A DNA stretch of 16,693 nt from Candidatus Latescibacterota bacterium. Its GTDB lineage: Bacteria; Krumholzibacteriota; Krumholzibacteriia; WVZY01. Where the stretch lies: the NCBI GenBank assembly GCA_963791045.1, contig CAWBQK010000020.1, positions 1-16,693 of the forward strand, read 5' to 3'. The position numbers were made by a program, and so were the translations under genes. Each line of letters opens with the position of its first letter. Position 1 is the first letter of the stretch. The notes under the pieces were generated by a model. The model made no database searches. It saw nothing but the letters and a program-made list of their open reading frames with translations, and was not told the origin of the DNA. Positions 3,575 to 16,693 of the stretch are shown piece after piece.

Positions 3575-3718
3575 ATGGTACACGACCCCGGTTGATGTTT
3601 TCGAAATGGATGAAAGCCAGCCCGGGCGCGCCGACCCAACGAAGAACCGGCACACCCTCATCAGCGGAGTCTATGCAAAACCAGCCACCAAATCAACCAC
3701 GGGCCGGCACGGGGGCAC

Positions 3719-5317
3719 CTAGAATACAGTGTCTTCGCCGCGGCTGCGTTCGAACATCGTGCGAATCGGGCTGTTTTCGGGGATCTGCTCGAGCGCGATT
3801 TTCTTCCATCTCGCCGTTCTCGCGAGCGGGTCTCGCATCGACAGCGTGCGTCCGCCGGGGATATCCCAGATTCCATCCCAGTAACACCGCAAACCCGGCC
3901 GGTCGGCATAGCTTCTTATCCGTCGGCCGCGAACGCGCGCACGGCCAGACGAAGGCGGTTTGGTCATCGCATCCTCAATGTGATCGACGCCGGGGGCCTT
4001 GTGGTCCAGCACCCCGGCGGCATCGAGCTTGTGAAAGAGCCCGTTCCCGTCGAGCTGCGCGAAACGAAAGTCGATCTCAAAGAGCTGCTGTCGCAGGTCC
4101 ACGTACGGTCGCAGCATATCCCAATCGAGCGAATGCAATTTGAGATACCGTGTCAGAGCCTTGATCGTATCCGGTATCGGGGAGGGCTTCGTCTCGCGGC
4201 CAAGAACCAGTTCGACTGATATCCTTCCACGGTGCTCCGCTTTGCGAACCGCCGTCTTGATTGTCTCGTTGACGTGGTTCCACGTGAAGAGTTCTTTGAG
4301 TTGAAACCCTTTTCGCTGGATGTAGTCCTCGTAAACCGGAAGTTTGATCGCCCAGTCGAGCGTGGCGGAGAGCGACTCGGGAGCGAATTCGATCCGGTCG
4401 AGCATCGAACGCCACTCCTTACACACTTCTTCGGCCCACACGGGCATCCATTTCGCGTCGATGTACTTCTCCGCTTTCTTCAGATAGTACCTCTGGATTT
4501 GAAGTGCCGTCGCCTCATGCCCGGTGATCAGTCCCACCGTTTCACGGCACGCCGGATCGCGCGCGAATGCCTGCATCGCCTCGACGGGTTTCATCGGCAA
4601 CATCTCCCTCCCCACGGCGAGTCCCGCGTCGATCATCGCGACGACCACGCCGGTCGTACCCACGCGCAACCACGACGCGAGATGAGAACAGAGACTCTCC
4701 CCGGCAATGATGTGCAGCCTGTGAAACCCACGTCTTGCGAGCGGTTCGTCTTTTCTGTGAAAGATCCCGCGAACATCCGTCGTCGACCCGCACACCTGCT
4801 TCTGGAGATGCCAGACGCGCGGCGAGATCGTGAACTCGATTCCCGCCGACATCGGATTGAACCCGCCCGCACCGGTAAAGATGATTCTCGACAAGAGGTG
4901 CGGGACGATCTGTTCCGTGAACGCGGAGGGGTGCCTCACGTGAAGGTACGACTCGTGGCTCCCCCACGTCGTTCTCGCTCCACTATAATCAACATTACAT
5001 TTGAAAACGCTCATCGTTTCATTTTTCCGGATCGAATCCGAGGTACACGACAGGGCGTCGGCCAGCGCCTTGTCCCCGGCGAGCGCGTACCGAACGACCT
5101 CGGTCGGGTTGGGGCACTCCGGCGTGCTCCATTCCGGATGCCCCCCGCAGTCCAGGTAGAACCGCGCCCCGCTCGAGAGGAAACGATCCATGGGATTCAA
5201 TCCCTGGATGTTCGGAACATTGTCGCGGACGTGCCGCTGGATCTCCTGGATGAGGGTATCCCGGTTGCGGCCACCAACGGCGTATTCCGTTTCTACACCG
5301 AGCAGCATCTCTTTCAC
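3719..5317 (-). CDS. pafA: Pup-protein ligase PafA-like (Pup ligase/deamidase family)
   Basis: Motifs colinear with PafA: GVETEY, FLSSGARFYLDCGGHPEWSTPEC (the PafA-type DxGxHPE), GSHESYL, SRIIFTGAG, KDEP, HRLHIIAGES, DWAIK, PPSSGRARVRG, RDP. GTG start at 5317 lies 1 nt after the pup stop, with an AGGTGG SD. Confidence 0.88.
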   Translation of the reverse strand: MKEMLLGVETEYAVGGRNRDTLIQEIQRHVRDNVPNIQGLNPMDRFLSSGARFYLDCGGHPEWSTPECPNPTEVVRYALAGDKALADALSCTSDSIRKNETMSVFKCNVDYSGARTTWGSHESYLHVRHPSAFTEQIVPHLLSRIIFTGAGGFNPMSAGIEFTISPRVWHLQKQVCGSTTDVRGIFHRKDEPLARRGFHRLHIIAGESLCSHLASWLRVGTTGVVVAMIDAGLAVGREMLPMKPVEAMQAFARDPACRETVGLITGHEATALQIQRYYLKKAEKYIDAKWMPVWAEEVCKEWRSMLDRIEFAPESLSATLDWAIKLPVYEDYIQRKGFQLKELFTWNHVNETIKTAVRKAEHRGRISVELVLGRETKPSPIPDTIKALTRYLKLHSLDWDMLRPYVDLRQQLFEIDFRFAQLDGNGLFHKLDAAGVLDHKAPGVDHIEDAMTKPPSSGRARVRGRRIRSYADRPGLRCYWDGIWDIPGGRTLSMRDPLARTARWKKIALEQIPENSPIRTMFERSRGEDTVF

Positions 5318-5318
5318 G

Positions 5319-5524
5319 TTACTGACCACCTTGCTGACGTGTTGCTTTCAAAAAGTCTTCACTGTTCGACGACAACGTCTCATCGACGATCCGATGTGCG
5401 GCGTCGATCAGGTTGCGCGCGTTGCCTCTCAACGAGTCGGCCTGCATCCTCGCTTCGTTGGAAGGGGGATCGGTCCGTGGGGTTTCGCGAACGGCATCTT
5501 CGTTTCTTTCTCTCTCTCGCTCAT
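5319..5524 (-). CDS. pup: Prokaryotic ubiquitin-like protein Pup (C-terminal GGQ), with an apparent frameshift near 5505-5518; absent from the ORF track
   Basis: Hand translation of the frame ending TAA 5321-5319 gives ...RNEDAVRETPRTDPPSNEARMQADSLRGNARNLIDAAHRIVDETLSSNSEDFLKATRQQGGQ*, matching the Pup C-terminal pattern (IDxxLxxNAEDFVxxYxQKGGQ). AAGGAGG SD and an ATGA overlap with the dop stop at 5524, but that ATG is out of frame across a GA repeat. An in-frame ATG at 5447 gives 42 aa. Confidence 0.85.
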
Positions 5525-7284
5525 TGCGTCGTTCCTCCTTTGTCCGGGGTATCGGCGCTCCCGGACAGCCTGGTGTGTTTCGGCCGGTGACCGTTTCGGC
5601 TCAGCCCGTCGATGATATCGACGAGTGAGCCCGCCTGTTTGAACACGCGTTCGGTGCGTTTGCGAGTGAAGCCAAACGGATTGCCCAGGTCCACCGTCCG
5701 GTGTTCAAGATTGTGTTCGTCGTCGCCGACGATAAACTGGATCTGTGCCCAATCGACCTCGGACACACGGTCCGGTCCCGCTTCGCGAAGAAGCATCGCG
5801 CGCGTCCATGCCCGCGTGTCTTCGGGAGGGTTTTTGGTGAACTTTTTGATCTCGTTCTTTTTGACGAAATGTTCGACGCGCCCCGCGCGGTCGTACGCCC
5901 AGAACAAACCTTCCTCCTTGTCGAGGCTCGAATAGATGTGATCGAGCCGTTTGACGGCGGGATGCTGCCAGTCGAGGTTCTCGTTTCCGGAGATGACCTC
6001 GTTGAGGATCGAGAACTTGAGCGCCCAGTCGAGCCTGCTCGACAACGCCGCGATGTTGCCGGTGCGGAGTTTTTCCAGCGTATCCGCCCAGAGCTCGACG
6101 ATCTCGTGGGCGCGCGGAACGATGTCGTCACAGTGTCTCTGCGACACAAACCGCGCCGCCTCTTCGAGGAACATCATCTGGAGTTCGACCGCGGTGACAT
6201 TGCGCCCCGAACACATTTTCGCCGTCGCCTTGAGTCCCGGATCGTGGCTCCAAACACCGAGCGCCGTAACCGGATCTTCGAGGAGAAGACCGAGGTTGAC
6301 GTGACCGGCCTCGATCATTGCGAGGACGATCTGCATGACGCCAGCCTTGAGAAGCGTCGAGCCGTGGCACAACGTGTTGTCGAAAAAGATCGAGTGCAGC
6401 CGCGCCATCCCCGACCCGGCGTGTTCGATGCGCCCGGACGAATCGCGGCTCGCCGTGCAGTGCGACTCGTCGCGGCTGTTGACGACGGGACGCGAGTACG
6501 TCGTGTGCGGCCCGACGATCTGTTCGAAGAAATCAGCCCGCTGCGACAGTTGGAAATCAACTTCGGGCCTGCCGTTCTCGCTTCCCACTTTGCCCTGGCC
6601 GGTGAACACGATGCTCGACACCTGATACGCGGCGAGGTAGAGGAGGTACTGCATCCTGCGCTCGAAGATGTCCTGCCAGCACTGGCGTGTGACGAGAAAG
6701 TTCATGTGACTGCCATATGCGTTGCCTCGACCGTCACTGTTGTTGACGAGTACATTAATCTTCTGTCCATCGGGGAGCTTTTGGTTCGCCGCCGCGAGGA
6801 TGCCGCGGAGGTACTCGAGCTGCGCATGCCAGCACGCGACATGATCGAAAGCGCTCCGCGTCTCGGGCACACACACCTCGATATGATTGAGATCGATGTA
6901 AATGCACCCGCCGTTCTCGGCCATGAAGCGGCGGTCGTGATCCTGGGGATTCCAGTCGACCTGCCCGCTCGTTCCGCCGATATGGTTGCCCGATGTCAGA
7001 TACATGGACGCGGCGCCCATGATGTCGGAGTAGTTGTAGTACTTGTGGCCGGAGGAGGCGACCGACCGGCGCCGTTTGTCCTCACATTCGTTGCACGAAC
7101 AACTCCACAGGAAGCGCCCCGAATCTTCGGCAAGCCCAGGTATCTCGCGAATCAAAGCCCGGGACGCTTCGCTGGAAGTTCCCCCAACGCGGTCGAGGCC
7201 GCTGATGAAGTTTCCCATCTCTCCGTCGTAACCAATGATCTTGGGTATCCCCCGCGATCGTTTCTCTTTTTTGCCGGAAGCCAT
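5521..7284 (-). CDS. dop: Dop-like Pup deamidase/depupylase (divergent member of the Pup ligase/deamidase family)
   Basis: Motifs: IIGYDGEMG, NGGCIYIDLNHIEVCVPE, NNSDGRGNAYGSH, FQLSQRADFF, TTYSRPVVNSRDESH, RLH, LDWALK, PPEDTRAWTR, VDW. Has a long loop after strand 1 and sits immediately upstream of pup, as dop does. Start at 7284 (MASGKK) follows an AAGGAG SD. Assignment as Dop rather than PafA is partly positional. Confidence 0.78.
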   Translation of the reverse strand: MASGKKEKRSRGIPKIIGYDGEMGNFISGLDRVGGTSSEASRALIREIPGLAEDSGRFLWSCSCNECEDKRRRSVASSGHKYYNYSDIMGAASMYLTSGNHIGGTSGQVDWNPQDHDRRFMAENGGCIYIDLNHIEVCVPETRSAFDHVACWHAQLEYLRGILAAANQKLPDGQKINVLVNNSDGRGNAYGSHMNFLVTRQCWQDIFERRMQYLLYLAAYQVSSIVFTGQGKVGSENGRPEVDFQLSQRADFFEQIVGPHTTYSRPVVNSRDESHCTASRDSSGRIEHAGSGMARLHSIFFDNTLCHGSTLLKAGVMQIVLAMIEAGHVNLGLLLEDPVTALGVWSHDPGLKATAKMCSGRNVTAVELQMMFLEEAARFVSQRHCDDIVPRAHEIVELWADTLEKLRTGNIAALSSRLDWALKFSILNEVISGNENLDWQHPAVKRLDHIYSSLDKEEGLFWAYDRAGRVEHFVKKNEIKKFTKNPPEDTRAWTRAMLLREAGPDRVSEVDWAQIQFIVGDDEHNLEHRTVDLGNPFGFTRKRTERVFKQAGSLVDIIDGLSRNGHRPKHTRLSGSADTPDKGGTTQ

Positions 7285-7361
7285 GTCCTTCTCCTTCTTT
7301 TTACTTTTCGGCCATACCCGGCCGCTGGTCGATCCGGGCGGGACCGCGAGTTCTCGCACAC

Positions 7362-7634
7362 GACAGGCGCGGGTGGCGGCTCGCGTTCTGGGTTGTTGAA
7401 GCCTCTGTGCATGAGAACTCGCACATCGCTTCGCTCGCCGATGGGGCCCCCGCCGCGGCGCAGCGGAGCGGAGTGCGGGTGGCACGCACGGCGCTGTTAT
7501 CGGCGAATAAGCAAACCGAGTGCAAATCGCTGTTATAAGCGAATCAGCGATCCGCACGTAGCGTCAGCGAGCACGCGCGGGGTAATCGGCGACAGGACCC
7601 GCGCCGAACCAGGTCGCCGCCACCCGCGCCTGTC
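7362..7634. repeat. 273-bp intergenic element bounded by perfect 19-bp inverted repeats (MITE-like or structured RNA)
   Basis: GACAGGCGCGGGTGGCGGC (7362-7380) is the exact reverse complement of GCCGCCACCCGCGCCTGTC (7616-7634). Internal 21-nt direct repeat, 18/21 identical, at 7492-7512 and 7528-7548. Confidence 0.75.
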
Positions 7635-9342
7635 ACGCCACCTGCACGAAGCGGTGGGTGTGGACGACTTTCTTGCGTACTGGTTCCACGCTCACCACGT
7701 CGAGATCCTGCGGCAGATCGATCAAGTAGCGCTTGCAGTTGACCGGCGTCAGCAGCCGCGCCGCGTTTTCGATTTCCTCTGAGATCGCGTCGAACACATC
7801 GTCGGGGCGGATTCCGCGGGTGCCCGTCTCGATCTCGCGCAGGCACGCCGCCCGCGCCGCCTTGTGCGCGAGTTTCGCGAGCACGGCGCCGCTTACCAGT
7901 TCGTGAATGCGGACCGTCCGCCGCGTGCCGTCACGAAACGTGATCGTCGCGACATCGCTCTCTCCGTTCGGCGCATACAACCGTGACAGTGTCGAGTCGA
8001 CGATTTCATCCCTCGCCGAGAGGCCGTCACCATCCGCCGAAGACGCGTACGGTTTGTCGGCACGGAAATACTTCGACAGGATCGAACGCGCGCCCGCCCT
8101 GTTGGGACGGCCGATCCGGATCGGGTTATCGCCGAAGCGGCCCGGGCGTGTGATCGCCTCGTCGAGAATGTCCTGACGGTTGGTCGCCGCGATCACGAGG
8201 ATGTTCCCGCGGTCCTCGAGCCCATCGAGCTCGACGGCCAACGCGTCCACCGCGCGGTCATCAACACGGTGCAGGTTCGCGCCCCGCGCCGAGGCGATCG
8301 AATCGAACTCGTCGAAGAACATCACGACGGGGATGTCCGGATCCGCCGCGGCCGCTTCGCGCGCCACCTTGAACACCTCGCGGATTTTCGCTTCGGTTTG
8401 CGAGTACCACATCGATCCCAGCTCGCCCGGCTTGATGTTCATAAACCGCGACCGCCCCGACTTCGAAAGCTCCCGCAACCAGTTCACGAGCGCCTTAACG
8501 AGAAGCGTCTTGCCCGTCCCCGGCGGTCCCTCGAGCATGATCGCGCGCTGGAGGGGGAGCCCGTACTCGCCCGTCAACGCGGGATTCTCGAGGTGAAGCA
8601 GGATGAGATGCTTGAGTTCTTCGATCTGCGTGTCGAGACCGCCGATGTCGTCAAAACTCTCCTTCGGAGCTTCTTCGAAGAAAAGATGATCGCCGGTGGC
8701 CTTGGGTATCTTTTCATAAGCGATCCGTCCGGCGGGGTTCCAGCGAACCTCGTCACCTTTCTCCAGTTCATCGTGGAGAATCCGTTCGCTGGGTTTGGCA
8801 ATGATTTCTTCGTCGCGCCGGCTCAAGACCAGGCGCCCATCGGGCGTGAAGCGCTCGAAGGTTGCCGTCTCACCACACGAGAGAGTCGTGGCCGAAATTT
8901 TGCAAACGAGCAGGTTGAGATCTCCCGAGAGAAGGACCTGGTCGCCCGCGGCAACGCTTTCCTTGTCCAGCTCGTCTATAACACGGACAAAGCGGAGCGT
9001 GCTCTCGTAGTTGACGAGCGCCGTTTCCTCTCCGGCGATCATCTGGTACTCGAGAAATGTCGCCGGGTAGAGCGGCGGCTGCGTAAGACGCTTATACGCC
9101 CCTTCAAGTTCCCCAAAAACACCTTCGAGCTCGTTCTGGACTTCCTTCGCGCGGCGAAGCCCGGTCCTGAGCCGGCCGAACTCGTGGAGCAGCAACATAT
9201 CGATATGACACCTGTTTTCTCCGGCATTATCCCGAAGCTCCTGGAGCTGGCTGCTCTTCTGTTCTGGTGAGATGCTGTCATCCATCAGAATCAGCCGTAT
9301 CAGTTCCATTTCCCTCGCGAGCGGACGTGCATTGCGCGGCAT
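7633..9342 (-). CDS. arc: ARC/Mpa-type proteasome-associated AAA+ ATPase
   Basis: N-terminal coiled coil ending LTQPP, OB-like interdomain region, FDDIGGLDTQIEEL, Walker A GPPGTGKT, Walker B FFDEFDS, AATNRQDILDEAITRPGR, and the ARC/Mpa-type segment ITFRDGTRRTV..ELVSGA. Start at 9342 follows an AAGGAGG SD. Confidence 0.9.
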   Translation of the reverse strand: MPRNARPLAREMELIRLILMDDSISPEQKSSQLQELRDNAGENRCHIDMLLLHEFGRLRTGLRRAKEVQNELEGVFGELEGAYKRLTQPPLYPATFLEYQMIAGEETALVNYESTLRFVRVIDELDKESVAAGDQVLLSGDLNLLVCKISATTLSCGETATFERFTPDGRLVLSRRDEEIIAKPSERILHDELEKGDEVRWNPAGRIAYEKIPKATGDHLFFEEAPKESFDDIGGLDTQIEELKHLILLHLENPALTGEYGLPLQRAIMLEGPPGTGKTLLVKALVNWLRELSKSGRSRFMNIKPGELGSMWYSQTEAKIREVFKVAREAAAADPDIPVVMFFDEFDSIASARGANLHRVDDRAVDALAVELDGLEDRGNILVIAATNRQDILDEAITRPGRFGDNPIRIGRPNRAGARSILSKYFRADKPYASSADGDGLSARDEIVDSTLSRLYAPNGESDVATITFRDGTRRTVRIHELVSGAVLAKLAHKAARAACLREIETGTRGIRPDDVFDAISEEIENAARLLTPVNCKRYLIDLPQDLDVVSVEPVRKKVVHTHRFVQVA

Positions 9343-10435
9343 CTTGAATCCCTCCTTCCGGAGTCTGATGTTCGTTGTCGGTAGTAACTTCCGCCCCACC
9401 CGCATCGAATACGGCGCCGCCACCCGGCACGTAATATCCTCTCCGCTCGAGCGCACCCTTTTGCCATCCAAAAAGCGTGTGGGTGATTTCATCTTCGGAC
9501 ACGTCGTTCACCGTGAGCGCGCAGGTGAACGCGCGCGGAAAAATCGTGCGGTGAAGATGCCGGTCCTCGGCGCTAAGAAACCCCTTCGCGAACGGGCACA
9601 CCGAACGCTTCTCCTGGGGACAGTCCTTGCACCACTCCCTCACCGGGTGTGAATGCCACCACCCGAGAAAAATCTCGCCCCTGCGGCGAAGGTCCACCGC
9701 CGCCCGCGCGGCCGACCACGTTTCGTGCGTGAATGTCAGATGCTTGACATCCGAAATCGTATGGACCGCCGGGACCTGCGCGGTGATTTCAACAAAAACT
9801 TCGGGGCGTTCGGTATCGCGGTGGAGGTGGCCGATGAGCACACCGCCCGTTTCCTTCGCGCCCGCGGTCCGCGCGAGTTCTCGCGTTTCCTCCAGAATGT
9901 CTTGTGAAATCACAATCGGCATCTCGCCCTGCTCCGCATCGCCGCACGCGCAAGAGCGTTCGGTGAAATCAGCGAGCGGCGATTCCTTGAACGTGATGTT
10001 CGGCGGAACCTCACGGCTCTTGTACGGCGAGACCGGCCCGGCGTTTGCGTGGCCTTCATCAAAAAACGCAACGGGAAGGTATCGCACCTGATCTTCTTTT
10101 GTCAGACGGCCCTTTTCGAGCAGCTCGGCCGTTACCTGCTTGGCCAAACCATTGAAGTACGCCGTCGGAAAATCTTCGGTCGCCCCATCGCCCTCTTCGG
10201 AGTAGATGGTCACCCTGAACCCGTCCAGATACGGTTCGCCGGCGTCGGCACTCCACAGCGGACGGATCGCCGAAGATCCGGTGCCGTCCGCCAACTGGAG
10301 CCGGCTCTGCCGTAAACCCTGCAACCACGCCCACTCGAGCGCGGGATCCCAATCCACCGAAACGGGAACCTGTTCGACGAGAGTTCCGTCGGCGCGATAG
10401 AGCGCAATCGCATAGCGATACCTTTGTGTGGACAT
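9278..10435 (-). CDS. JAB/MPN+ (JAMM) metallo-isopeptidase with an N-terminal domain of unknown function
   Basis: ETGGVLIG (catalytic Glu), GWWHSHP, and SAED completing the JAMM motif. Start at 10435 (MSTQR) follows a GGGAGG SD. Confidence 0.9.
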   Translation of the reverse strand: MSTQRYRYAIALYRADGTLVEQVPVSVDWDPALEWAWLQGLRQSRLQLADGTGSSAIRPLWSADAGEPYLDGFRVTIYSEEGDGATEDFPTAYFNGLAKQVTAELLEKGRLTKEDQVRYLPVAFFDEGHANAGPVSPYKSREVPPNITFKESPLADFTERSCACGDAEQGEMPIVISQDILEETRELARTAGAKETGGVLIGHLHRDTERPEVFVEITAQVPAVHTISDVKHLTFTHETWSAARAAVDLRRRGEIFLGWWHSHPVREWCKDCPQEKRSVCPFAKGFLSAEDRHLHRTIFPRAFTCALTVNDVSEDEITHTLFGWQKGALERRGYYVPGGGAVFDAGGAEVTTDNEHQTPEGGIQDAAQCTSAREGNGTDTADSDG

Positions 10436-10503
10436 CTCATGCCCTCCCAATACGAGAATTTGACAATCGGCCGGACGCAAAGCCGGGCCGAGGGATGATC
10501 AGA

Positions 10504-10785
10504 TCATCCTGCGTCTACATTCGGAGTCAGTGTGACCCAGTCGCCTGTTTCCAGGGCGTCACCGATGCGCTCCGTTCCATGCAGATGCCGGGCCTCGCGC
10601 CGCAGCATCGCACGGTAGCTGAGCGAACGACCTTCCGCGTCGTTCCGGTTCAGGTTCAAATCGTCGATGAGGTTCTGCACCAACTCGGCCGCCGTCGTAT
10701 CCGGCGACACGCCTTCGACGTTCCGAACCTTCTGCTGAGACACGTCGCTAGCCGTGAGCTCGAGTGTTGCGGCTTCGTACGCCAT
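10504..10785 (-). CDS. Ubiquitin-like (beta-grasp) modifier protein with C-terminal Gly (..PNVDAG)
   Basis: 93 aa with a beta-grasp-like pattern (VSPDTTAAELVQNLIDDLNL...LETGDWVTLTP) and an exposed terminal AG. GGAGGT SD. Located between E2 and JAB genes. Confidence 0.85.
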   Translation of the reverse strand: MAYEAATLELTASDVSQQKVRNVEGVSPDTTAAELVQNLIDDLNLNRNDAEGRSLSYRAMLRREARHLHGTERIGDALETGDWVTLTPNVDAG

Positions 10786-10791
10786 GATCGC

Positions 10792-11721
10792 CTACCTCCT
10801 TCCCCTTGCGGGTTCGGGTGTTGGCTCCCCGGTCTTGCGGGAGCCCTTTGCACGTGGGGCTGTCCCCCGCGCTTCCAGATATCTCCGCGCCGTCGTCCCG
10901 TCGGCAAGGATCAGGGCTTCCTTGTCACAGAAACGGCAGGCGACGGAGAGCGACGAGAGCCCGCTGTCGAGCAGCGCCGATGACGGCCGCTCGTTGAAAC
11001 GGACTTCATAAAAAACAGACACCCCATCCTCCGCGTCCACACCAGCCCGGGCAAAACGAACGAGTCCGTTCACCGTGAGCAAAAACTCCGCAAGCGCCGC
11101 ACGTGACTCATCGCAAAGCGACTTGTGTTTCGCGACGCTTGTCCTCAGCCGGTAACCGCCGTTGCCATCCGTCTCGACACCGGCTCTTCGCGACGCGTTC
11201 TGCGTGTCGAGGTCGACGAACGCTTCGCCGTTCTGCCTTTTTGAAATCACCCACCCGGTTTCCTCACAAAGATCCTCGAGCGAGTCTTCGGGGATGCTCC
11301 CCCCATTTGTCGCCGCGGCCGTCTCCGGCTTGGATATCACCGCCCGCGACGAGATGAGATTCTCGATCGCCTCCGCGCACAACTTCGCCACCTCGACGCC
11401 GTCGACCACCGGCACGTCCTCACACAGATTCAGGAGAGCCCCCTCTTCGGGTGAAAGCGCCACCCTTGCCCTGCCGGCCAGCCTGGGGTTGACCTCGAGA
11501 TACCGCCACAGGTCGCCGGTTTTCACGCTCGCCGGCACGGGGGAACGGCACGTGAGCCAGTTGCCGCCCAACTCGACGTCGATGGTCTGGTCGCTCCCCG
11601 AGTTCACGTTCACGCGCCAGGTCATCCGCCCTGTTTTCTCGACGTCAAACTTGCCGTCGAAATCCCCGGCGCAGAAGAGATCGTCGATCGATTTTTCCAA
11701 ACGCTCGATTCGGGTGTTCAC
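10792..11721 (-). CDS. Hypothetical protein with two tandem YbjN/CesT (T3SS-chaperone-like) domains
   Basis: Two internally similar halves: LWRYLEVNPRLAGRARVAL..LNLCEDV and LAEFLLTVNGLVRFARAGV..VFYEV. GTG start overlaps the E2 stop (GTGA, 11721-11718) with a GGAGGAG SD. The fold call is inference. Confidence 0.6.
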   Translation of the reverse strand: MNTRIERLEKSIDDLFCAGDFDGKFDVEKTGRMTWRVNVNSGSDQTIDVELGGNWLTCRSPVPASVKTGDLWRYLEVNPRLAGRARVALSPEEGALLNLCEDVPVVDGVEVAKLCAEAIENLISSRAVISKPETAAATNGGSIPEDSLEDLCEETGWVISKRQNGEAFVDLDTQNASRRAGVETDGNGGYRLRTSVAKHKSLCDESRAALAEFLLTVNGLVRFARAGVDAEDGVSVFYEVRFNERPSSALLDSGLSSLSVACRFCDKEALILADGTTARRYLEARGTAPRAKGSRKTGEPTPEPARGRR

Positions 11722-12251
11722 CGCTTCTCCTCCAGTGCCTGTGAGTCCTTGATTTTGTAGCTCGCGCGCCGCCGCACGAGCGGCCGCGAGTCGACGGGAA
11801 ATCTTTCCTTGTTCTTGCGCGCCCACGTACACGCTTCGGCGTTCAACGCGTCATCTTCGCGCATCGTCACCTTCTGGAAGGTGAGGATCTCGTAGCACTG
11901 GTAAATGATGTCGACGAGCGATGTGCCCGGATTGAGCATTCCAATGCAAACAAACGGAAATCGGACATTCGGATGAAATACATTCGCCGGGCCGAAGAGC
12001 GTGACCACTTCGGGCGGTGTGGCCCGCTGCCAGTAATCCGACGGAAACCGGATTCCGATGTCCACGCGGTCGTACTCACAAACACCCTCGCGAGTCTTCA
12101 GCAGCGTCTTGCAGAAGAACCTGACAAGGTACGTTTGGTGCGGTTTTTCTCCCATCGGCACCACTTCGATGAGATCGCTCCGCGCGGCCAACGCCATCGC
12201 TTCGGCTTCCTGTGTCTCGAGGAACGACTTGATGATTGGGCTTACGACCAT
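11718..12251 (-). CDS. E2 / UBC-fold ubiquitin-conjugating enzyme
   Basis: Colinear with eukaryotic UBC motifs: IRFPSDY..PP..VFHPNVRFPFVC (HPN plus catalytic Cys), PGTSLVDII..IL, ALNAEA. Start at 12251 follows a GAGGTG SD. Confidence 0.9.
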   Translation of the reverse strand: MVVSPIIKSFLETQEAEAMALAARSDLIEVVPMGEKPHQTYLVRFFCKTLLKTREGVCEYDRVDIGIRFPSDYWQRATPPEVVTLFGPANVFHPNVRFPFVCIGMLNPGTSLVDIIYQCYEILTFQKVTMREDDALNAEACTWARKNKERFPVDSRPLVRRRASYKIKDSQALEEKR

Positions 12252-12255
12252 GGTG

Positions 12256-13413
12256 TCACCTCTCTCTCCCGGGGGCTTTCCCGCCCCTGGAATCAACTTC
12301 TACATAACGCCGGCATCCACTGCTGTCGCGGATACCGAGGACATCGCCTTCCCGAACCCCAATCGCACGCAGCGTCCGATCCGCCAGGTGTGGCGGCAGC
12401 GCGGCGGGGTTGACCAACTCGCGGCTCCCGAATCCGGTCGCGACCATGTCGCCCCCGCATTCCAGACAGGCCCGGGCGCGCTTTAGGCGGGACGTGCGGC
12501 GATCGAACGTCACCTTGAGCTCGAGGACAGGATGCGGGCGGCCGCAGTCCCTGCACATGAGTTGGGTGACAAAGGACTGGCCGGGCACTTCGAGCGTTGC
12601 TTTGTGCGCGATCTTGTCGAGACGCGCATTCTTGGCCACGGACCCCTCACAACGGATGGGCGGCTCGGCGTGCAGCGGCATCCGGCACTCGCCGTTATGA
12701 TGGAGGCGAGTCAGGTAATGGTTGTGATACCCGGCATCGATCAACACCTGGAACGAATCGGCATCGGGACCACCGCCCGTGCTCGGCTCGTAGAACCCCG
12801 ACAGGATCTTGCCCGCTTCGATCGCCGCCAGAGAGCCGGCAAACGCCCCGAGGCTCGACGGCGCGTTGGTCGCCGCGGGCTCACCCGACCCCGGCGAACA
12901 CGCGTATGTCTGCTCGACGGCGGCGTAGTCCTCAGGCGTCCACCCGCACTCGGCACAGCCGCGCTCCGCGCCCGGGAAAAACACACTCACGCGGGCGAGG
13001 AGGTTGCCGCCGTCAACCCCGGCGTCGATCCACGGAATCCCCAACCGCCAGCTCGTCTCGTTGGTGTGCTGGCGCGCGCGTCTCGAGTCGAGTCCGGCAA
13101 GGATGACGTCACCTCTTCGGTGGTGGAGCGGAACATTTTCAATCCGCTCGACCAGCGCGGTCACATCAAGAGACGGGTTGATCTTCTTCATCCGCCGCTT
13201 CTGCACAACGGCCTTGGGCTTACCAACATCCGACGGCACGATGTCCTGTGATTTGAGGTTCTTCGGTTCGTACGTGTCGGGATCGATGAGCGTGACACGC
13301 CCTACCTCACTCAGCCGTGCGAGATGGGAAATCATGTGGCTGCCTATGTTGCCACCGCAGCCCACCACGACGACGTGCTTTGACATCTCATTCTGTTCGT
13401 TGAGCTTGGTCAT
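12256..13413 (-). CDS. E1-like (ThiF/MoeB family) Ubl-activating enzyme with a C-terminal Zn-ribbon/ubiquitin-fold-like extension
   Basis: VVVVGCGGNIGS nucleotide loop, IDPD..NL, VGKPKA, GLDSRRAR, CAEC, candidate catalytic Cys in TYACS. C-terminal CRDC and CLEC, then RTLRAIGVREGDVLGI. GAGGAGG SD. Confidence 0.92.
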   Translation of the reverse strand: MTKLNEQNEMSKHVVVVGCGGNIGSHMISHLARLSEVGRVTLIDPDTYEPKNLKSQDIVPSDVGKPKAVVQKRRMKKINPSLDVTALVERIENVPLHHRRGDVILAGLDSRRARQHTNETSWRLGIPWIDAGVDGGNLLARVSVFFPGAERGCAECGWTPEDYAAVEQTYACSPGSGEPAATNAPSSLGAFAGSLAAIEAGKILSGFYEPSTGGGPDADSFQVLIDAGYHNHYLTRLHHNGECRMPLHAEPPIRCEGSVAKNARLDKIAHKATLEVPGQSFVTQLMCRDCGRPHPVLELKVTFDRRTSRLKRARACLECGGDMVATGFGSRELVNPAALPPHLADRTLRAIGVREGDVLGIRDSSGCRRYVEVDSRGGKAPGRER

Positions 13414-13445
13414 TCGTTCGACCTCCTCGGTTGACCGCTTTCAAC

Positions 13446-13991
13446 TCAGCCGCACACATCGTCACCCGGAACCCACTGGAAACCCTCGTCGATGCCCGTC
13501 GGGTTGTCGCACATCGAGCACTTCGGCGCAAACGACCAGCAGTTGAGTTCATCGGTCTCATGGTGGATAACCGAACACCCGGGGCAGCGGACGACGGCCG
13601 CCCCTGGTTCGATCGTCTGCTTGCATCGGGGACACACCATCGGCTCTTCGCTCCCCTCGAACGTCTCGATCCGCGCGAGACTTTCGGCGGAAAAGTAGAT
13701 GGGTCGGTTGTCCCCAACTTTTATTTCGTCACCGTGCATGAGCGCGCGAATTCCCGTTGCCATGCGAAGTCCGTTTACTTTTATTTTCTTTGAGCGCCCC
13801 CACAGGACGGACCACGACACGTCTCTTCCTTCACCGTTGGTCGGCACGACGATGACGCTACGAGCCTTCGCGGTTTTGGAATGCGTCGCTTTGACTAACT
13901 TTGGGGGTGAGCCTTCGATGTCGAGCGATTGCTCGGTGAGCGGAACGACCAGCCACTGACGATCGTCGTCGCGAAACCAGATGTAGGCCAT
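13446..13991 (-). CDS. FHA-like domain plus prokaryotic RING-type Zn finger (candidate E3 ligase)
   Basis: VNGLRMATGIRALMHGDEIKVG resembles the C-terminal strands of FHA. C-x2-C-x12-C-x2-C-x4-H-x6-C(W)-x6-C-x2-C resembles Prok-RING_1 / C4HC3 fingers. First gene of the E1-E2-Ubl-JAB cluster. Confidence 0.75.
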   Translation of the reverse strand: MAYIWFRDDDRQWLVVPLTEQSLDIEGSPPKLVKATHSKTAKARSVIVVPTNGEGRDVSWSVLWGRSKKIKVNGLRMATGIRALMHGDEIKVGDNRPIYFSAESLARIETFEGSEEPMVCPRCKQTIEPGAAVVRCPGCSVIHHETDELNCWSFAPKCSMCDNPTGIDEGFQWVPGDDVCG

Positions 13992-14166: not shown

Positions 14167-14430
14167 GCACTAACTCATTATTTTACAAGGGTTTAGTCAC
14201 AGTGGGCGCTCAAAATGCCTCACCGTAGCCCAGTTTTTACGGTCAGATCGAATCGAGTCGAAATGCTCCTGCGTTTGTCACAGTAGATTTTAAAGCCGTC
14301 ATTCTGAGCGACTTTCCACGCACAGAAACGGCATAAAATTCGTTACTGTGAGAACACTTCGACAACTCGATTCTTGAATCGCACCGTGTGTCCGTCCGTC
14401 GCTCCCGCCGCCTTCCTGGAGGTCTTGCTA

Positions 14431-15548
14431 ATGGCAGCCAAGACAAGAAAAACCACAAAGCTTGTCCCCAAAGTCGATCCCTGTGTCGCCCGCGCGTCAT
14501 GCCTTCGGTACGTAGATGAACCGTTGGATGAATGGGAAATCATGTCGGCCGTCGGTGAGTTGATCACCAGCGGCTGCAGCGTGGCAGAAGTTCAGGAGAA
14601 GATATTCGAGAAGTACAAAGTGGAGATGTCGCGCGAGAAACCGTACTACTATTTGCGGATTCTCGGGGAGCAGGGTTACCTCCGCTATGTCGCGCCGTCG
14701 TGTCACGAGTTGAAGGACCAGATCGAACAAAATTTCGATTGGCTCGAGCGCGTTCATGTCGTTCACACCACCGTCTCAAATGATGTCGCGCGCGAAGCGG
14801 CTTACATGCTTCTCCGGCTCGTCCAGCAGTATCACCGAACCCACGGGAAGAAGGATGCCGTGCATGTGGGCTGGGCCGCGGGCTTATCGATGCTGCAGAC
14901 GGCCAGGGCCTTTGCCGAGATCCTGCAGAGGCCCGCAAACGGTCTTCCCAAAAAGATTTACTTCCATGCGATGGTCACCGGGCACGACCCGGGCAATCCC
15001 GCGACGGACCCTAACGCGTTCTTTACCTTCTTCCTCGAGCCTCCCGCGCTTCAGATCGAACCACATTTTGTCGGGCTCCATGCGCCGTCGATGGTGCTGA
15101 CCGAAGCGATACCCCGATTGAAAAGGAACGTAGAGATCGCGCGCGCGTTCGACGCCGCCAAGGACATCGACATCATTGTGACATCGGGCTCGGACTGGCA
15201 GGATCGGCACAGTTCGCTGCGCGCATGCATGGAGGCGTCGGAGTCGACATACCAGACGCTCAAACAGGAGAAAACGGTGGGAGATATGTTGTGGCGCCCA
15301 ATCGGCGACGACGGACCGATCGAGATGGAGACGGAGAGGCGCGCGCTCACGCTCGTCGAACTCAGCGACCTCCCCGAGTTTATCAAGAGCGGGAAGTACG
15401 TGCTTATGATGTTGGGGCCTGTGCGTCGTGCAACCACCACAAGGGAAGGATTCTACACACGGCGCTGCATCAGAAACAACCGCTGTTCACTCACCTGGTG
15501 TGCGACAGCCGCACCGCCGCGGCGCTTCCAGGTCTGTCGAAGAAGTAG
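14431..15548 (+). CDS. SorC/DeoR/LsrR-family transcriptional regulator (HTH plus sugar-phosphate-binding domain), with an apparent 1-nt frameshift near 15420
   Basis: HTH-like MSREKPYYYLRILGEQGYLRY, then LKDQIEQNFDWLERVHVV, VHVGWAAG, DIIVTSG, VGD. The family-typical end LFTHLVCDSRTAAAL lies in the other frame (ORF 15225..15548). GGAGG SD before ATG 14431. Confidence 0.8.
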
Positions 15549-15577
15549 GTTTTGGCCAGGCCGGGCCATACGAAGAA

Positions 15578-16693
15578 TCAGACACGGGGGTGGCTCAGAA
15601 GTCGGCGGTAGACGCGGTACAGATACACGATGCCGCTTCGTATCCGCTTGTTGTAAATGCGGATGGATTCGTTTTGCCGGGTCGTCCCCGTCCAGTGGCG
15701 CTTGTACGGTTCGTCTCCGCGGAGGAGGTCGAATTCGCTTCGGCCTCTTCGCGCCGCCTCTTCGATGCAGAATCCCAATAGCGCGGTCAACACATTGGTG
15801 CGCTTCACCGGCATCGGCTGCACCGCGCTTATATAATAGTAGAGCTTGTCGTTGTAATCGAAACCGTAGAACGATCCGATGTGGAGACCGTCGAGTGTCA
15901 TCGTCGCAAGAAACAAGATTTCCTTGTCCATGAGCGCGCGCGACACATTGTGATGAAATCGTTCGATCTCATCCGAACAGAAACTCTCCGAGCCGCCCCG
16001 TGCTTTCCAGCTTTTTTTGTTGAGCGCGATCAAATCATTCATCCGCGCGGGCAGATCATCGCCATTTTCACACAAATCGAAGCGGAGGTCGCCGGTCTCG
16101 GCGAGGCGGCGGCGCGAACAACGAACCGTATACCGATTGGTCCGCCGGTAACTCTCCAGCAATTCCTCCCACCCGCCGTTCAAATGAATATAAGGACATT
16201 TTGTGTATCTCACGTGCTTCGCCGTCGAACTGCGGGTGTCTCTCGACGCCAGTTCCTTGAATCTATCGAGAACCGGCGACGTCTCCGGCACTTCGAAGAA
16301 CTCGAACACATCCCATTCTTTCCTCAGCGGCCCGAACAGGTGATCCCAGATCGCCGTCGCACCACGCGTCACGTCGTCAGCCTTCACGATCATACAAAAT
16401 AGTCCGTAATGCCGGCGCCGACCGGCCTCAACACTGGTAGCTCGAGCATCCGCCGGTACGTCACCTTCTGCACCCAGAGCGGCGCGATGGCGATGAGTTC
16501 ATCACCGTCGTACGCGGCGACCGCGAGCAGCCTGTCCCCGTTGATGCACGTTTTCGCCCAGTTCGACACCCACTCCCATGTGAGAAAGACATCGTTGAAA
16601 TGACTCTTCTCGAGAAGCGCGTTCCACTGGGCGCAGCGTATCCAGCTCGTCAGCAATACGTACTCTCGTCGAAGTGTATACGTACATAAACAT
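15578..16693 (-). CDS. CelD/BcsL-type GNAT acetyltransferase, split by two apparent frameshifts (near 16395 and 16631); may begin at or beyond the window edge
   Basis: Three overlapping ORF pieces join into one colinear protein: DELDTLR / QWNALL..FLTWEW..LIAIAPL..GITDY / MIV..CPYIHL..W..LL..EFDLLRGDEPYKRHW. Confidence 0.8.

Follow-up and report, generated by a model that had tools for sequence, protein, structure and literature searches.

We analysed a window of 16,693 nt, which is the whole of contig C20 in a metagenome-assembled genome (MAG) from Candidatus Latescibacterota (G000; 21 contigs, 3.66 Mb, 80.9% completeness, 5.8% contamination). The minus strand carries a co-directional cluster of ten genes, in which a very small gene lies between two paralogues of the Pup_ligase family (PF03136). 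The larger features are as follows.

3719-13991, minus strand: ten-gene co-directional cluster, in the order Prok-RING, ThiF E1, UQ_con-like E2, YbjN, 93-aa ORF, JAB, Mpa-like, Dop-like, Pup, PafA-like
10504-10785, minus strand: 93-aa ORF between the YbjN and JAB genes, a candidate ubiquitin-like modifier, ending ..TPNVDAG before the stop
7633-9342, minus strand: Mpa/ARC-like AAA ATPase with an OB domain (Pfam AAA and Prot_ATP_ID_OB_C), ending ..RFVQVA
5521-7305, minus strand: Dop-like Pup_ligase-family gene, 594 aa (PF03136, E = 1.7e-91)
3719-5317, minus strand: PafA-like Pup_ligase-family gene, 532 aa (PF03136, E = 7.9e-82), with the N-terminus ..GVETEYA

For the small gene, the initial annotation had proposed a Pup-type tag that the ORF track had missed, and both parts of that proposal hold. 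Read directly from the window sequence, the minus-strand frame that ends with the stop codon TAA at 5321-5319 gives ..IVDETLSSNSEDFLKATRQQGGQ. This frame, which has the C-terminal Gln already pointed out (..RQQGGQ), is open upstream beyond position 5600, and the first ATG, GTG, or TTG in it is the ATG at 5447. Since a product from that codon has just 42 codons, the list of ORFs of at least 60 aa is blank at the gene. The ATG at 5524-5522 opens a different frame, which reads MSEREKETKMPF.. and terminates after 31 codons, and no single ORF of Pup length is present in the window as assembled. The start signals described earlier for this out-of-frame ATG can all be read in the sequence: It is preceded by an AAGGAGG motif and overlaps the TGA stop (5523-5521) of the Dop-like gene as ATGA. 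At the other end, the GTG start of the PafA-like gene follows 1 nt after the stop of the tag gene. The parts of the gene are as follows.

5534-5540, minus strand: Shine-Dalgarno-like AAGGAGG, 9 nt upstream of ATG 5524; a GGAGG-ATG context is also present in the relative L008
5507-5524, minus strand: 5' part of pup in the start frame, ATG AGC GAG AGA GAG AAA (M S E R E K)
5509-5518, minus strand: (GA)5 tract coding for Glu-Arg-Glu, followed by AAGAAAC; the copy number is the same in L008
5507-5509, minus strand: the lesion, a run AAA where the intact relative L008 has AAAA
5445-5447, minus strand: in-frame ATG with a potential 42-aa product; a GAGG abuts it with zero spacing, and the Met is not conserved
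5319-5507, minus strand: 3' part of pup in the second frame, RNEDAV...FLKATRQQGGQ, with the stop TAA at 5321-5319

A search of 5.8 billion proteins returned five homologues of the tag, all exactly 68 aa long, with E-values from 1e-32 to 4e-24 and the common start MSERE[KR][KR]. One of these, P0001, begins MSEREKRNEDAV and equals the six start-frame codons of the window joined to the 62 codons of the second frame, with zero mismatches: The second frame is 100% identical to its residues 7-68, and it reads K6-R7 at the break. The metagenome contig L008 (1,415 bp; protein 79% identical) allows a comparison at the DNA level. No base differs between L008 and the window from the ATG to the last unit of (GA)5, and the AAAA of L008 against AAA in the window is the sole indel in the 204-nt gene. 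On this nucleotide comparison the lesion amounts to the absence of one A from an AAAA run; codons 6 (AAA) and 7 (AGA) would both have to use base 5507. The break had previously been placed in the GA repeat, but the five GA units are the same in L008 and its extra base falls in the adjoining A run. Of the two repairs that had been offered, removal of one GA unit gives 67 aa, a length and an N-terminus found in none of the five close homologues, whereas addition of one base gives the 68 aa of the relatives.

Intact counterparts of 63 to 69 codons occupy the same position in three genomes of the same family and in two Acidobacteriota MAGs, where the two pup loci lie between the same neighbours. 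They have M-x-x-R-E-[KRL] starts and end in GG[EQ] or DGQ, so the GG[QE]-type ORF expected at related loci in the initial annotation is present there. The three same-family counterparts begin M/V-[ST]-T-R-E-.. and end in RQQGGE, RQGGGE, or RQPDGQ, and an N-terminus of the form M-[ST]-x-R-E-[KRL] is seen in L002, L003, L004, L036, and L037. A further four of the five loci recovered in a metagenome scan (L009-L012) match residues 13-45 only; the two that we inspected (L009 and L010) have a GC-rich frame and no GG[QE] end, and we rejected these loci as Pup genes.

Use of the ATG at 5447 had been suggested as an alternative way to translate the second frame. The comparison with relatives does not favour this: Met is absent from that column in four of the five close homologues, P0001 alone having it, and the Met of L002 sits one column later (alignment A1). 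A non-canonical start for this frame was also considered and ruled out. Between the Shine-Dalgarno site and position 5447 the frame contains no ATG, GTG, TTG, CTG, ATT, or ATC, and the sole ATA lies upstream of the Shine-Dalgarno site.

We infer that the frame break is a consensus error (base-calling or polishing) of the MAG assembly and not a property of the organism, and we place the probability of this at roughly 0.78. An assembly indel was also the most likely cause according to the initial annotation, which agrees with the intact 68-aa orthologues, with the single missing A, and with the many frame breaks found elsewhere in the assembly. These were surveyed by tblastn against G000 with 540 stop-to-stop ORFs (120 aa or longer) taken from a 260-kb portion of the same-family genome G007. 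Matches were obtained for 223 of the 540, with 167 of them strong (at least 80 bits). Eighteen HSP pairs switch frame inside a single gene; they mark 16 distinct junctions over 118,083 nt of aligned sequence. Nine of the 16 junctions are in the ribosomal protein operon (C5:26,500-35,000), and contigs C6, C7, C11, and C17 also have junctions. Five lie inside the Pfam domains of the ribosomal proteins L5, S5, L15, L22, and L4, none of which has a second copy in G000. Since breaks in single-copy ribosomal protein genes cannot be real, the G000 consensus must contain indel errors. Genes for a MiaB-like protein, an alcohol dehydrogenase, QueG, a DUF6588 protein, a TPR protein, and a TMEM260-like protein are also broken, and a stretch of seven C is the site of one of the breaks.

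Among 14 query ORFs that we checked, three belong to no Pfam family; these could be the same sites seen on the antisense strand. In the reverse control, with G000 ORFs against pieces of G007, 6 of 342 were positive, four of them in the ribosomal operon; this is an upper bound for G007, because those four positives have G000 queries that are themselves broken. Taken together, G000 has about one indel error in every 7-14 kb of coding sequence, and at that rate a contig of 16.7 kb should contain one or two breaks. There are, however, two caveats to reading the tag lesion as one of these errors. Eleven of the 16 junctions look like insertions and many are not in homopolymers, so the loss of one A is not a signature error type. 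The breaks are also clustered, and seven genes of the window are unbroken: RING, E1, E2/YbjN, JAB, Mpa, Dop, and PafA each align to their counterpart in G004, a genome from another genus of the family, in a single HSP without a change of frame. Errors may be rarer here than on average in the genome.

Public sequencing runs add little at the site itself. No run contains half or more of the words of positions 4800-6200, the best share being 0.33. Four contig-only runs, which hold low-depth contigs of relatives, were aligned to 3700-7700, and no piece in them bridges 5487-5536; the pieces of run X3 end at 5486 and resume at 5537. Record 5 of run X1 (167 letters) aligns to 5669-5507 with its last four letters unaligned at the A run, which fits an extra A or equally a substitution, and we do not count it as evidence. 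The same contigs differ from the window farther upstream, between the stop of the Mpa-like gene and the start of the Dop-like gene: One low-depth contig of a relative in run X2 shows an additional T after position 7395, and one in run X1 skips 108 nt (7465-7574).

The alternative that the single-A deletion is real in the strain or population is unlikely, though more probable than the other alternatives. In that case the tag gene would have become a pseudogene recently, or would yield a 31-residue out-of-frame peptide together with, at best, a truncated tag of 42 residues, which could still be ligated but would lack its threading end. The assembly as given does read AAA, and none of the four public runs, which hold contigs of relatives, bridges the site. 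The 3' frame is otherwise intact, as would be expected for a very recent lesion, and loss of the tag is plausible given its patchy distribution: Pup and Pup_ligase genes occur in the same four of 13 family genomes, G000 included. Against a true deletion, an assembly that breaks five single-copy ribosomal protein genes cannot be trusted for indels, the Dop-like, PafA-like, and Mpa-like genes are all intact, and P0001 represents an intact allele whose residues are completely identical on both sides of the break. The 42-residue product is itself a poor candidate, since its ATG has a GAGG at zero spacing and encodes an unconserved Met.

Far less probable is a functional shift, whether by programmed -1 ribosomal frameshifting, transcriptional slippage, or slipped-strand ON/OFF phase variation at the GA/A tract. 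Switching at a tag gene would be striking, and (GA)5 followed by AAGAAA stands exactly at the break, but the five close homologues and L008 are read in a single frame and need no shift. The start frame has no X XXY YYZ heptamer, and the downstream 84 nt fold no better than shuffled sequence (z = -1.25; 24 of 200 shuffles as good). The slipped-strand switching at the GA repeat considered in the initial annotation finds no support, with (GA)5 in both the window and L008. To our knowledge, five GA units and a run of three or four A are shorter than the tracts known to slip.

With the missing A restored, as the reading of an assembly error implies, positions 5524-5319 of the minus strand are a genuine 68-codon gene of the pup family, although a divergent member of it. 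The Pfam Pup model (PF05639) matches the open frame with 25.3 bits (E = 3e-5), from the ATG-encoded residue to the last residue. P0001 scores 25.6 bits, both values being below the gathering cut-off of 27. In the search with the clade members Pfam Pup gives E = 2.4e-5, and five of the eight members match at E ≤ 0.01. NCBIfam has no match for any of the three tag peptides searched. A profile built from the eight clade members and compared with the PDB recovers Pup chains only (6 of 6 matches at E ≤ 1, best E = 0.026), and in this alignment ..EDFLkatRQqGGq pairs with ..EDFVRAYVQKGGQ of the solved Pup chains.

The features given for Pup in the available text of PMC2588565 are a length of 50-90 residues, a C-terminal G[EQ] signature, a neighbouring gene of the PafA family, and two PafA paralogues. 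The tag is 68 aa long in all five close homologues and in L008. The window sequence ends in ..RQQGGQ, the relatives in GGQ, GGE, or DGQ, and PF03136 genes lie on both sides. The location between two Pup_ligase paralogues is kept in six other loci from two phyla (L005, L006, L007, L008, L036, and L037/L040). A C-terminus of the form ..S.[ND][SP]E.FL[KR]A[TI]RQ..G[QE] is conserved. We also modelled residues 25-68 of the tag with the PafA-like protein. The model has an ipSAE of 0.75, against 0.00 for the best control. In the calibration of the method, 116 of 157 solved complexes and 2 of 215 mismatched pairs attain this mark. Contacts agree to at least 94% among three runs, the partners have a pLDDT of at least 71, and the C-terminus of the modelled tag touches the ligase at residues 11-19 and 56-60. 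A like complex (4bjr) is solved, so the score reflects likeness and not binding, and may stem from memorisation by the model.

It is very improbable that the open frame is instead a chance ORF, or another small protein with a fortuitous GGQ end: The sub-threshold Pfam score, the silence of NCBIfam, and the weak E-values of the PDB profile would fit such a reading, but the conserved position between the paralogues, the conserved C-terminal motif, the restriction of PDB matches to Pup chains, and, as a measure of likeness to 4bjr, the complex model all speak against it.

The identities of the two paralogues are less sharply defined. The upstream gene scores 265.6 bits with the Dop equivalog model TIGR03688 (cut-off 492.3) and 221.2 bits with the PafA model TIGR03686 (cut-off 551.3); the downstream gene scores 226.9 and 203.8 bits, respectively, again below both cut-offs. 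Comparison with PDB chains of Dop and PafA gives 202 versus 104 bits for the upstream gene and 180 versus 136 bits for the downstream gene. Since neither paralogue reaches an equivalog cut-off and both are closer to Dop, sequence alone does not tell which of them is the ligase. The labels dop and pafA used in the initial annotation draw their support from gene order and N-terminal architecture, and on the same grounds we call the genes Dop-like and PafA-like. The upstream paralogue has ~78 extra residues relative to the downstream one before the RF..G..Y.D motif, at the position of the Dop loop, and aligns in one frame to residues 2-579 of the G004 Dop. For the downstream paralogue, only the alignment to solved PafA starts at residue 4. 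The Mpa-like ATPase is likewise below its equivalog cut-off (TIGR03689, 293.8 bits; cut-off 504.75).

By homology with known systems, the parts of the locus would act as follows. Translation of the tag would begin at ATG 5524, where the ATGA overlap and the AAGGAGG motif would couple it to the 3' end of the Dop-like gene, and would yield a largely disordered protein of 68 residues. A Gln-ending Pup implies a deamidation step, with ligase action and recognition by the ATPase to follow (PMC3511204, available text). The Dop-like enzyme would then deamidate the C-terminal Gln of ..GGQ to Glu, and the PafA-like enzyme would link the side chain of this Glu to target lysines by an isopeptide bond. 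The helical middle of the tag would be recognised by the coiled coil of the Mpa-like ATPase, with the N-terminal MSEREKR.. segment as the putative threading end; a disordered N-terminal threading segment of Pup and a GQYL docking motif of the ATPase are described in the accessible part of PMC8755798.

The sole match to the Proteasome family (PF00227) in G000 is HslV (L033; C17:250214-250726), at 261.9 bits against a cut-off of 137, and genes for a 20S proteasome were not found in this genome, which is 80.9% complete. The Pup-carrying relatives have one or two PF00227 matches. The C-terminus of the Mpa-like protein reads ..RFVQVA (7633-7660) and that of its G004 counterpart ..RYVRVA, with no GQYL motif. 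From its gene content, the pupylation module seems to work without a 20S core.

Actinobacterial Pup (PupQ, PF05639), which has been solved with Mpa (3m91/3m9d, 7px9) and with PafA (4bjr), shares with the window gene the small tag of 68 aa, the location beside Pup_ligase-family genes and an Mpa-like ATPase, a C-terminus in which ..EDFLKATRQQGGQ aligns to ..EDFVRAYVQKGGQ, and the Gln end that implies deamidation (PMC3511204, as far as its text is available). The resemblance of the tags is nevertheless weak, below the Pfam gathering score and with a PDB E-value of 0.026. The conserved N-terminal motif M-S-E-R-E-K-R is seen only in the alignment of the window clade, unlike actinobacterial Pup, and the host belongs to Candidatus Latescibacterota and not to the Actinobacteria.

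The corynebacterial arc-dop-pup-pafA loci are alike in the order Mpa-Dop-Pup-PafA, with pup directly before the ligase gene (PMC3511204), and also in having no proteasome subunit genes in the locus and an ATPase without the C-terminal docking motif (PMC3511204 and PMC8755798, in the portions available for each). They differ in phylum, and the window locus extends upstream to the E2-like, YbjN, candidate ubiquitin-like, and JAB genes. The name UBact is reportedly used for the Pup-like tags of five phyla.

Sporadic Pup orthologues outside the actinobacteria have been described (Iyer, Burroughs and Aravind 2008), and the window tag has the Pup features listed in the accessible text of PMC2588565. 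The lineages given there are nitrospirae, deltaproteobacteria, planctomycetes, and verrucomicrobia; those given in the excerpted text of PMC7947786 are NC10, Armatimonadetes, Verrucomicrobia, Nitrospinae, Firmicutes, Proteobacteria, and Planctomycetes. Latescibacterota and Acidobacteriota are absent from the lineages in these portions of the two papers, and a literature search over partly available texts returned no account of pupylation in Latescibacterota. The present data therefore add to the Pup family a clade from Latescibacterota and Acidobacteriota MAGs, with a conserved M-S-E-R-E-K-R start and a ..FLKATRQQGG[QE] end. Beyond the patchy occurrence noted above, we found one Pup_ligase fragment among 23 genomes of a sister family.

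For annotation, the repair restores a key small gene of a pupylation locus that ORF callers could not see for want of one base. Many other genes are broken in this assembly as well, so any pseudogene or frameshift in G000 should be distrusted unless reads support it. The gene itself is a new member of a known family, and its linkage to ubiquitin-type genes is a more unusual point than the repair. G004 and G012, which represent two other genera of the family (L005 and L007), preserve the full ten-gene order, and the order from the E2-like gene onward is also found in the Acidobacteriota MAG G042 (L040). For this last genome, tblastn at E ≤ 1e-3 found neither the E1 nor the RING gene within 19 kb of the locus. 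In the available text of PMC2588565, which treats Pup neighbourhoods, the term JAB is not mentioned.

The 93-aa ORF shares 56%-61% identity with its positional counterparts in G004, G012, and G042, of which the one in G012 extends past the equivalent point and ends ..NAAQGLE before its stop. Pfam gives a weak RA-like match (E = 0.037), and the AlphaFold model is poor (mean pLDDT 57.9), with the element order strand-strand-helix-helix-strand-strand. Judged from this gene neighbourhood, it is a tentative and on balance doubtful possibility that the Pup tag does not feed a proteasome and that a single Mpa-type unfoldase functionally links a Pup-type system with one of ubiquitin type, in a two-tag cluster. 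If the linkage of the Pup genes to the E2-like, JAB, and candidate ubiquitin-like genes is functional, the combination of two protein-tagging chemistries in bacteria could be studied in a natural setting here.

The initial annotation had also counted three other frameshifts in the window. None is seen in the seven genes compared with the G004 proteins, and one possible frame problem lies near 15400-15450. Short minus-strand ORFs at 14243-15440 have no Pfam match. On the plus strand, an ORF of 519 codons (14374-15933), with a weak Sugar-bind match below the cut-off (E = 1.3e-4), overlaps a convergent GNAT gene on the minus strand (15578-16393) by 355 nt. The GC3 phase fits the plus-strand ORF to about 15400 and the GNAT frame thereafter, and the true end of the plus-strand gene may have been lost to another frame error.
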